A stretch of DNA of 10,696 nt, taken from positions 1 through 10,696 of the IMG/VR virus record IMGVR_UViG_2534681978_000009; one strand, given 5' to 3'. A program made the position numbers and the translations under genes. Source of the DNA: a virus. Taxonomy: Duplodnaviria; Heunggongvirae; Uroviricota; Caudoviricetes. Numbering within the stretch: the stretch's first letter is position 1; each line of letters opens with the position of its first letter. Of the stretch, positions 8,758-10,364 are shown in pieces. The notes under the pieces are model-generated. The model saw nothing but the letters and a program-made list of their open reading frames with translations, made no database searches and had not been told where the DNA came from.

Positions 8758-9207
8758 ATGGAAGAACAAGCAAACAAGATTCTCGTAGAACTACTGCAAA
8801 AAGCCAGCAATGGAATAGACGCGGCTGTTTCATTCAGCCAAGCGCAGATTCCTGATGTTGTTCATCAGTTGCTGCTATGGAATATGGTTGACAGTCTGAT
8901 TAAAACATTAATAGCCATTCTAACAATCCCACTGGTTTTCTGGTTTATGAAGAAGCAGTGCCAAAGAGTTGAGACAGGTAAAATCGGTGATGAAGGATAC
9001 TCATGGGAGAGGGGAAATCCCAAATACAGGCCGACAATGGTTTGGGATAGCAAAGGAGATATTAACCTTCTTATCATGCCATTGGTTGGAGTTTTGACTC
9101 TGTGGGGGATTTTTATTATTGGTGTAGTAACCAATATGACTTGGTTAAAAATTTGGCTGGCCCCAAAGCTTTACCTTATCGAATATGCAGCATCATTGGT
9201 TAAGTAA
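8758..9207 (+). CDS. Hypothetical membrane protein in the N-proximal accessory slot (possible superinfection-exclusion type)
   Basis: 149 aa. Soluble N-terminal ~45 aa, then hydrophobic segments LIKTLIAILTIPLVFWFM and LLIMPLVGVLTLWGIFIIGVVTNMTW. GAGGTGAG Shine-Dalgarno upstream. Occupies the position where lambda/P22 carry ral/sieB-type morons. No family recognised. Confidence 0.6.
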   Translation: MEEQANKILVELLQKASNGIDAAVSFSQAQIPDVVHQLLLWNMVDSLIKTLIAILTIPLVFWFMKKQCQRVETGKIGDEGYSWERGNPKYRPTMVWDSKGDINLLIMPLVGVLTLWGIFIIGVVTNMTWLKIWLAPKLYLIEYAASLVK

Positions 9208-9211
9208 TTTC

Positions 9212-9237
9212 AGGCCGCATAGTCGGCCTTTATTTTT
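9212..9237 (+). terminator. Rho-independent terminator after the membrane-protein gene (tL1-like)
   Basis: AGGCCG-CATAGT-CGGCCT followed by TTATTTTTGG. Confidence 0.5.
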
Positions 9238-9356
9238 GGCATAAACAACAGAATAAACACTGCACTGTGTATTCATTCCAACGAGTGAATACACGGAGCA
9301 ATGTCGCTCGTAACTAAACAGGAGCCGACTTGTTCTGATTATTGGAAATCTTCTTT

Positions 9357-9383
9357 GCCCTCCAGTGTGAGGGCAATTTTTTT
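9357..9383 (+). terminator. Terminator-like hairpin immediately upstream of the coiled-coil gene RBS
   Basis: GCCCTC-CAGTGT-GAGGGC followed by AATTTTTTT, ending 4 nt before the GGAGG Shine-Dalgarno of the gene starting at 9396. Confidence 0.4.
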
Positions 9384-9395
9384 GATGGAGGATAT

Positions 9396-10364
9396 ATGAG
9401 TGAAGTAACAGATTTAGTTGTTATTGAAAAAGCAAATGCAATGACTGTATTTCAGTCTGCCGACCAGATTGAAGAAATCCTTCAAAAGGTTGAACGTGAA
9501 GTTATGTCCTTTGTGCCTGATATCACAACGGCAAAGGGCAGAAAGGAGATCGCTTCTCTGGCGTATAAAGTTGCGCAGACGAAAACATATCTCGATGGTC
9601 TTGGCAAAGACCTTGTTGCTGAACTGAAGGAAATTCCAAAGCTAATTGATGCCAACCGCAAGACAGTGCGCGATCGCCTTGATGAACTAAAAGCCAAGGC
9701 GCGCCAGCCTCTAACTGATTATGAGGAGGAGCAGGCACGGATTAAAGCCGAAGAAGAAGCTAAGGCAGCAGCTGAAGCTCTCGCAAAGCAAATTGAGTCT
9801 GACCATGAAATAGCGATTTTGATGGATCGCGAATTTGACCGCCAAAGAGAAGAGGCAAGACTCAAAGCGGAGCAGGAAAAGCGAGAGCATGAAGAACGCT
9901 TAAAAAGAGAGGCTGAAGAGAAAGCCAGAGCTGAAGCCGAAGCAAAGGCAAAAGCCGAAATTGAAGCAGCAGCAAGGCGAGAAGCAGAAGCTAAGGCAGC
10001 AGCGGAACGTGCAGAGCGTGAACGTATTGAAGCCGAGCAACGAGCACAGCGCGAAGCAAAAGAGGCAGCAGAACGAGCTGAAAGAGAAAAGCAGGCAGCA
10101 ATTGAAGCAGAACGCAGAAAAGCACAGGAGGAGGCTGAACGAATCCGTCGCGAGGCTGAAGCAAAAGAGCAAGCCAGAATAGCAGAAGAAAAAAGAATCA
10201 AGGACGAAGAAGAGCGTAGAGCAAAGGATAAAGCTCACCGGAAAGAAGTAAATAACAAAATACTTGCTGACCTTATCAAGGTTGGTGCATCAGAAGATGT
10301 TGCTAAAAATATCATAACAGCCATCGTAAAAGGCGAAGTATTCGCAACAAAAATAACCTACTAA
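9396..10364 (+). CDS. Hypothetical protein with a long E/K/R/A-rich predicted single alpha-helix or coiled-coil (TolA-like low complexity) between small N- and C-terminal domains
   Basis: 322 aa from the ATG at 9396, with GGAGG 4 nt upstream; the track ORF's 18-residue N-terminal extension is rejected. Residues ~115-280 are almost entirely E, A, K, R, Q (for example REAEEKARAEAEAKAKAEIEAAARREAEAKAAAERAERERIEAEQRAQREAKEAAERAEREKQ). Ordinary-composition N-terminal (~110 aa) and C-terminal (~45 aa) domains. Confidence 0.7.
   Translation: MSEVTDLVVIEKANAMTVFQSADQIEEILQKVEREVMSFVPDITTAKGRKEIASLAYKVAQTKTYLDGLGKDLVAELKEIPKLIDANRKTVRDRLDELKAKARQPLTDYEEEQARIKAEEEAKAAAEALAKQIESDHEIAILMDREFDRQREEARLKAEQEKREHEERLKREAEEKARAEAEAKAKAEIEAAARREAEAKAAAERAERERIEAEQRAQREAKEAAERAEREKQAAIEAERRKAQEEAERIRREAEAKEQARIAEEKRIKDEEERRAKDKAHRKEVNNKILADLIKVGASEDVAKNIITAIVKGEVFATKITY

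Follow-up and report, generated by a model that had tools for sequence, protein, structure and literature searches.

What do the two genes that lie between the antiterminator gene N and cIII in a P22-like lambdoid phage do, and do they act together? The question is posed by a stretch of 10,696 nucleotides (nt) from a virus of the Caudoviricetes (IMG/VR record IMGVR_UViG_2534681978_000009, positions 1 to 10,696; hereafter the window), which comprises the immunity and early region of such a phage. An original prediction, made from the sequence without database searches, had described the two open reading frames (ORFs), ORF149 of 149 amino acids (aa) and ORF322 of 322 aa, as a two-gene accessory module in a variable cargo slot. 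Both are real genes, judged by their conserved homologs, which number hundreds to thousands for each. ORF322 is a full-length homolog of Agt (also named Mog) of phage phi80, and its relatives stand beside phage annealing-protein genes in several bacterial groups; ORF149 belongs to a separate family with its own distribution. We consider it probable, with moderate confidence, that the two early-left genes of the region are functionally separate and form no module, with ORF322 serving as a recombination or anti-nuclease accessory and ORF149 having an early function at the level of the membrane.

Independent assortment of ORF149 and ORF322

Co-occurrence was assessed in three sets of loci. An alignment of enterobacterial Agt proteins fetched 80 IMG/VR loci, 79 of which hold an Agt-type ORF; an ORF149 alignment fetched a further 80, with sufficient downstream sequence in 69; and Pseudomonas, Vibrio-phage and Acinetobacter queries gave 169 non-enterobacterial loci, 166 of them carrying an Agt-type ORF. 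An ORF149-family ORF lies upstream in only 8/79 of the enterobacterial Agt-type loci, and an Agt-type gene follows at a distance of 1.5 kb or less in 12/69 of the ORF149 loci. No relative of ORF149 was found, in any frame, among the 169 non-enterobacterial loci (0/166 for those with an Agt-type ORF). Seen from either side, the two genes assort independently, and the proposed two-gene module fails both on these counts and on the presence of two terminators between the genes.

The slot itself was correctly located, with N on one side and cIII and kil on the other flanking the pair. In other genomes the Agt-type gene is separated from N by Ral, P22 gp17, an Nmad5 protein, or unknown ORFs of 156, 97 or 75 aa. 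The description of a variable cargo slot thus holds for ORF149, in whose place these genes are found, but not for ORF322, a conserved gene positioned between the tL terminators and the cIII-kil-recombination block. In the ORF149 set, the terminators are followed by lambda Ea10 at 29 loci and by an Agt-type gene at 12, and Ea10 in lambda has the same place as ORF322, after the tL terminators and before cIII. Ea10 and Agt are alternative occupants of one position ahead of cIII. A profile comparison of the Agt family with Ea10 detected no similarity, and we know of no established function for Ea10.

The predicted transcription layout likewise separates the two genes. Over 8400-10696 the window shares 98% identity with Escherichia phage HF4s and about 97% with CUS-3, N7 and Sf6. 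On the + strand the order is cI, cI terminator, PL-like promoter, N, ORF149, a 188-nt spacer, ORF322, cIII and kil, with the following features:

7275-7925, + strand: cI, with a terminator after it at 7924-7943
8015-8043, + strand: PL-like sigma-70 promoter (TTGACC, 17 nt, TAAATT), from a consensus scan only; its position agrees with PL of Sf6 and phi80
8444-8749, + strand: N-type antiterminator gene, 101 aa (PHROG 271, 3.4e-36)
8758-9207, + strand: ORF149, 149 aa (PHROG 3054), predicted small inner-membrane protein with two transmembrane (TM) segments
9212-9237, + strand: intrinsic terminator 1, a 6-bp GC stem at 9212-9229 plus a U tract; first terminator after PL
9265-9296, + strand: perfect 14-bp hairpin with no U tract, between terminators 1 and 2
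9355-9383, + strand: intrinsic terminator 2, an 8-bp stem plus T7; counterpart of Sf6 'tL2A'
9396-10364, + strand: ORF322, 322 aa, Agt/Mog family; ATG at 9396 preceded by GGAGG
10389-10520, + strand: cIII (PF02061, 4e-15)
10505-10657, + strand: kil (PF06301, 1.7e-20)

Each gene had been thought to be bracketed by intrinsic terminators. Both terminators exist, but both lie inside the single 188-nt intergenic spacer. No terminator-like site was detected in the 8-nt gap between the N stop (8749) and the ORF149 start (8758), and ORF149 is therefore predicted to be immediate-early, on the PL transcript with N. With two terminators 5' of it, ORF322 is predicted to need N-mediated read-through; from its stop (10364) to cIII no terminator-like site was detected. 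Dependence of PL expression on N, as originally supposed for both genes, is thus predicted for ORF322 and the genes downstream but not for ORF149. The two terminators and the structured spacer argue against co-transcription of the pair as a single unit. A layout with one or more terminators behind an ORF149-type gene is likewise annotated in HK639, whose record places two terminators at the same spot behind its ORF149 homolog, and in Sf6, whose record puts a terminator immediately 5' of gp33, as before ORF322.

The RNA of the spacer (9205-9398) folds with a z-score of -5.3 relative to shuffled sequences, and an Rfam scan of 7900-10696 returned no hits. The hairpin at 9265-9296 may mark a site of RNA processing or act as an additional pausing or termination signal; alternatively, it may belong to the conserved 'boundary sequence' that the Sf6 record annotates. 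A crude consensus scan found no sigma-70-like promoter site within 8044-10659, and there is thus no evidence of expression in a lysogen.

Could the two genes nonetheless make up a moron cassette whose products act together in defence, exclusion or host takeover? They are adjacent in HF4s, Sf6, CUS-3 and N7 as well as in the window, no curated family covers either protein, and the post-N slot is variable. However, in addition to the low co-occurrence, the terminators split the genes into different predicted temporal classes, each gene is found alone in many unrelated phages, the promoter scan gave them no site of their own and there are no meaningful PADLOC hits. We consider such a cassette very unlikely. 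Two candidates for a conserved pair of membrane and coiled-coil proteins were rejected: gp84 of Shigella phage B2, beside an ORF149 homolog, is an unrelated collagen-repeat, autotransporter-like protein, and HK639_43 is likewise unrelated. At 93 aa, the Vibrio gp67 'coil' protein is short.

ORF322 and its links to phage recombination genes

BLASTP aligns ORF322 with phi80 Agt (PHI80_40, AFV29176.1; phi80 is also named Lula) at 51% identity over 322/322 residues (E = 1e-64), and the protein matches PHROG 1376 over its full length (2e-110). Alignments and an AlphaFold2 (AF2) model recover the complete architecture of the Agt/Mog family, namely the N-domain, the ESDHE-ALLMN-FDR motif, a variable charged helix and a C-terminal mini-domain. 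Phi80 Agt is itself 322 aa long, shares this three-part architecture and, like ORF322, is encoded in the early-left operon upstream of recombination genes. GenBank describes phi80 agt as 'anti-toxin for Gam; Mog (modifier of Gam)' and the next gene, gamL, as 'host RecBCD/SbcCD enzymes inhibitor; toxic without Mog'; the HF4s record labels its copy of ORF322 in the same way as phi80 agt. The same protein is encoded by Sf6 (gp33) and also by CUS-3, N7 and HK633, with DNA about 97% identical. The claim that neither protein belongs to a characterised family was therefore correct in that no curated family exists for either, but ORF322 has a full-length homolog in Agt/Mog. Homology to a characterised lambdoid protein is confined to ORF322, with a function that rests on annotation, and does not extend to ORF149.

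The family is large. Searches with the N-terminal 150 residues of ORF322 retrieve 5,050 clusters (50% identity) at E <= 1e-3, and 3,618 at E <= 1e-10. ORF322 has no meaningful hit in Pfam or NCBIfam, and no Pfam family was found on 38 diverse Agt-family members. In a family scan at E <= 10, N- and C-terminal fragments gave sub-threshold noise only; this includes a RuvA_C match to a C-terminal fragment (E = 0.1), a weak lead that we do not count as evidence. PADLOC returned only LmuB (E = 0.03), a coiled-coil artefact. A sequence profile search of the PDB for solved relatives produced low-complexity matches only, and Foldseek found family members only in BFVD and generic three-helix bundles in the PDB (E >= 0.17); structure searches for a known family were uninformative for both proteins of the pair. 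A literature search on Agt, GamL, Mog and Sf6 gp33/gp34 yielded no text on function.

Many database records give Agt-family proteins names such as 'cell envelope biogenesis protein TolA', 'colicin import membrane protein', 'putative tail-fiber protein' and 'fibrinogen binding protein', which would make ORF322 a TolA-like envelope protein, a tail fibre or an adhesin. However, ORF322 has no TM or signal segment (maximum 19-residue hydropathy 1.03), and Pfam and NCBIfam give no TolA hit at E <= 0.1, even with the 38 diverse members included. The likeness is compositional and restricted to the E/A/K/R helix, and the gene lies in the early-left operon beside recombination genes, not structural genes. 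We see next to no chance that these names describe the function of ORF322; they reflect composition only, and the mislabelling is widespread.

The central tract that gives rise to such names is as described in the original prediction: residues 116-285 are 80% E/A/R/K (27.6% E, 25.3% A, 15.9% R, 11.2% K). In the AF2 model of ORF322 (mean predicted local distance difference test score, pLDDT, of 80), helices at 12-38, 46-76 and 81-143 are followed by one unbroken helix of about 146 residues (150-295, pLDDT 95-98). The protein can thus be divided into an N-terminal helical domain (1 to about 143), the ER/K helix (150-295) and a C-terminal mini-domain (296-322), and small domains do flank the tract as foreseen. 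The helix contains 55 i/i+4 pairs of opposite charge, as against 24.7 +/- 3.9 in shuffled sequences, its hydrophobic occupancy is at most 0.15 in all heptad registers, and its net charge is 0. Judged from sequence and model together, it is an ER/K single alpha-helix (SAH) rather than a coiled coil. Helices of this type are known from myosin VI and X and from a TolA domain II-like tract. ER/K SAH domains resemble the single ~146-residue helix of ORF322 in their enriched i/i+4 E-K/R pairs and in having no heptad hydrophobic seam; they are a structural motif rather than a homologous family, and the likeness tells of the build of ORF322, not of its binding partner.

Conservation in the Agt family resides in the N-domain, the ESDHE-ALLMN-FDR motif and the C-terminal mini-domain (H-R/K...G-l-s-e-e-A-K...A-I-a-x-G...I-x-Y), while family members range in length from 221 to 429 aa. 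A common allele of 245 aa (P0130) is ORF322 minus 77 residues and otherwise identical. Two 27-nt direct repeats (93% identical; 9750-9776 and 9981-10007, + strand), 231 nt apart within the ER/K tract, coincide with the ends of the 77-codon segment that this allele lacks. The length of the helix therefore appears to vary through repeat-mediated recombination, and its variation between alleles is consistent with a role as a spacer.

The genomic neighbourhood of Agt-type genes is dominated by single-strand annealing proteins and exonucleases:

Enterobacterial, 79 Agt loci: ERF in 35, Rad52-like in 21, RecT in 8, AAA_24 (Sak4-type) in 5; YqaJ exonuclease in 11, Abc2 in 34
Pseudomonas, 80 Agt loci: RecT in 41 or ERF in 39, as the next or second gene; YqaJ in 78
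Acinetobacter, 78 Agt loci: RecT in 74; YqaJ in 74

An annealing-protein gene lies downstream in about 69/79 of the enterobacterial loci and is adjacent in 80/80 of those from Pseudomonas and 74/78 of those from Acinetobacter (RecT in the last case); in the small Vibrio-type set, 3 of the 8 loci have an AAA_24 ATPase next to the gene. Gene order differs between these groups, running from the Agt-type gene through cIII/kil-size ORFs to the annealing protein in enterobacterial phages, and from the Agt-like gene to RecT or Erf and then YqaJ in Pseudomonas and Acinetobacter. Annotated phages extend the pattern further: phi80 agt has GamL, RecT and Exo as neighbours; JBD44 has its Agt-like gene near Erf and an exonuclease; in Iodobacter PLPE the genes run RecE, Bet, Agt-like, RdgC; and the Agt-like gene neighbours exoVIII and Bet in Serratia Eta, Bet in Acinetobacter TCUAN1, and RecE and RecT in Yersinia 210.17. 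The neighbour in Vibrio Seahorse is annotated only as an ATPase. The persistence of this adjacency through swaps between non-homologous annealing families and through changes of gene order suggests a functional linkage and not inherited synteny alone.

The phi80 annotation offers a more specific reading, in which ORF322 would be a dedicated antitoxin for a GamL-type toxin. The GenBank notes on PHI80_39 and PHI80_40 state as much, and they are given weight by the full-length identity with phi80 Agt and by the annotation of HF4s. However, phi80 agt lies directly upstream of gamL, whereas ORF322 is followed by cIII and kil, and most of its relatives are without GamL. GamL occurs in 8/79 enterobacterial Agt loci and in 0/166 of the others (8/245 overall), and HK639 has GamL without an Agt homolog; antitoxin activity against GamL is therefore not the general function of the family. 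Furthermore, HF4s, which is 98% identical, has Erf, SSB and Abc2 but lacks GamL. We give the antitoxin reading only a small chance of applying to ORF322.

Alternatively, ORF322 may itself be an anti-nuclease or anti-defence factor, a functional counterpart of lambda Gam. Lambda Gam precedes bet and exo, and the order of Agt-like, RecT or Erf and YqaJ genes in Pseudomonas and Acinetobacter prophages mirrors this gam-bet-exo arrangement. Moreover, no recognised Gam homolog was present among the annotated neighbours in the Pseudomonas and Acinetobacter sets, and an anti-RecBCD gene is usual in recombination modules according to a 2025 survey of such modules in lambdoid phages (PMC12315714). Such a factor would nevertheless be redundant in the enterobacterial loci that also carry Abc2 (34) or GamL (8), the long helix is charge-neutral and so no acidic DNA mimic, and structure searches with ORF322 brought up no Gam-type fold (Gam or Mu Gam) and no inhibitor. 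On balance we regard this alternative as rather unlikely.

The broader reading, in which ORF322 is an accessory of the recombination module and not a moron, seems to us the probable one. Several points weigh against it. The function of phi80 Agt is known here from the GenBank note alone, and the rarity of GamL beside Agt, together with HK639, rules out that annotated role family-wide. The window stops at 10696, short of the recombination genes, and a recombination module is inferred from HF4s. In enterobacterial lambdoid phages the adjacency may partly be inherited synteny. Lambda is without an Agt-type gene, as, we take it, is P22. In Acinetobacter a RecT/YqaJ pair suffices for recombineering with no upstream gene (PMC4128354). 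Agt is therefore dispensable for annealing recombination itself, since lambda and presumably P22 do without the gene and RecT/YqaJ works alone. The gene types of this RecAb pair (RecT and a YqaJ-type exonuclease; PMC4128354) are those found behind the Agt-like gene in 74/78 Acinetobacter loci, and the authors of the recombineering system report no Gam homolog in A. baumannii.

As a recombination-module accessory, ORF322 would be expressed as a delayed-early gene along with cIII, kil and the recombination genes, once N has allowed transcription through the two terminators. The protein may then act as an elongated cytoplasmic adaptor, with its N-domain and its C-terminal mini-domain of ~30 residues held ~20 nm apart by a spacer, the charge-neutral ER/K single alpha-helix of variable length. 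The two end domains would bind partner proteins, and by this means ORF322 could modulate or restrain a recombination and anti-nuclease module that acts on host DNA-repair nucleases (cf. the annotation of GamL in phi80). Its likely partners would be a set of Erf, SSB and Abc2, as in the near-identical HF4s. Any one specific mode of action (e.g. restraint of toxicity, a Gam-like factor or tethering) is at most a tentative proposal.

The wider suggestion, which we also put forward tentatively, is that Agt-type proteins may be an overlooked and widespread extra component of phage single-strand annealing modules, whichever annealing family is used, with an ER/K 'ruler' joining two binding domains. 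If this is true, Agt-like proteins could be the missing Gam-like anti-nuclease or regulator in the Pseudomonas and Acinetobacter modules, and the addition of an Agt-type protein could improve recombineering in non-model bacteria. Pfam has no model of the ORF322 N-domain family (some 5,000 clusters at 50% identity), none of its structures has been solved, and its members are routinely mislabelled as TolA. An Agt-type gene is almost always found beside phage annealase and exonuclease genes, whichever the annealase family. The main text of the 2025 survey of lambdoid recombination modules makes no mention of Agt (PMC12315714). Once their role is known, Agt-type proteins could become part of the phage recombination toolkit, and thousands of annotations could be put right.

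ORF149, a predicted early membrane protein

Two hydrophobic segments of ORF149, at about residues 46-64 and 104-125, agree with the TM helices originally predicted, and the AF2 model renders both as long helices (pLDDT 68). The protein can be read as an acidic N-terminal amphipathic segment, two TM helices around a W/Y/P-rich loop, and a C-terminal amphipathic helix. Among 35 homologs, conservation falls on the N-terminal ~41 residues, on the inter-TM loop (G-x4-E-G-Y-S-W-x2-G-x-P-K-Y-x-P-T-x2-W-D-x2-G) and on the C-terminal helix (WLKIWLAPKLYLIEYAASL), while the TM segments drift. Comparison with Sf6 gp34 (L003, 2117-2536) reveals a sharp mosaic, in which identity is 98% over residues 1-41, falls to 18% over residues 42-125 and returns to 83% over residues 126-149, and this alignment suggests that the TM-loop-TM core has been swapped between alleles. 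Sf6 differs from the window in having gp36 and ral between N and gp34, and both gp33 and gp34 are annotated there without a function.

The exact ORF149 sequence is present in at least 1000 E. coli and Salmonella contigs, as 'hypothetical' or 'phage transmembrane protein'. Relatives occur in unrelated contexts in lambdoid phages, N4-like virulent phages, phi92-like large myoviruses and several groups of Vibrio phages. From this distribution of sequences, ORF149 appears to be a self-contained, horizontally mobile early inner-membrane protein. In Vibrio phage 120E34-1 a lone homolog on the opposite strand (2501-2905) sits between the tail-completion and head-closure genes, as a classic moron-like insertion and in a setting that differs from that of ORF149 in the window.

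If the predicted layout is correct, ORF149 would be made alongside N in the opening minutes after infection or induction, with no need of antitermination, and would serve as an immediate-early membrane effector. Like T4 Imm, lambda SieB, P22 SieA and HK97 gp15 it is a small phage protein of the (predicted) inner membrane, and by analogy an exclusion-type role is plausible. The slot of ORF149 is filled by P22 gp17 or Ral in relatives and by sieB in lambda; sieB has its own promoter, whereas none was detected for ORF149. ORF149 might keep the DNA of superinfecting phages out of the cell, as T4 Imm or the Sie proteins do, and superinfection exclusion is our leading guess, albeit a tentative one drawn from analogy.

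Other results count against this assignment. The topology is ambiguous, with positive charge concentrated in the inter-TM loop (on average 7.6 lysines plus arginines in the loop, against 2.1 for the N-tail and 3.2 for the C-tail). An hhalign comparison of the family alignment with lambda SieB returned a probability of 0.1%, ORF149 had no meaningful hit in Pfam, NCBIfam or PADLOC, and a Foldseek search of BFVD with the model, which is of modest confidence, found nothing.

A different membrane function for ORF149 is possible if doubtful. The protein might, for example, set the timing of lysis like a holin or antiholin, inhibit a membrane protease or transporter of the host, or anchor a replication complex. 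In N4-like and phi92-like phages, which are strictly virulent, members of the family lie in clusters of early or DNA-metabolism genes, and this favours a function of this kind, as do the predicted immediate-early timing beside N and the occurrence, just downstream, of cIII (an FtsH inhibitor according to the Sf6 annotation) and kil (a septation inhibitor). However, the gene is not in a lysis cassette in any context examined, Pfam and PHROG annotation give no likeness to a known holin family, and nothing positive separates these membrane options from one another. ORF149 is a reasonable candidate for exclusion assays.

Other features of the window

The window is ordinary, in that both genes are near-identical to those of HF4s, Sf6 and CUS-3, and phi80 encodes a named homolog of one of them. 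The Pfam N_peptide match to the N-type protein is sub-threshold (0.0062), and the HF4s record labels the 98%-identical region N. A 129-aa ORF on the - strand (8043-8432), which runs antisense to the PL leader in the interval from promoter to N, is probably spurious. Further upstream, a 315-aa ORF (5363-6310, - strand) precedes a DnaB-type helicase gene and contains a repeated His/Ala-rich stretch; from its position, it is a putative O-like replication initiator. Long His/Met/Cys-rich shadow ORFs run along the opposite strand and in the other frames of this ORF.

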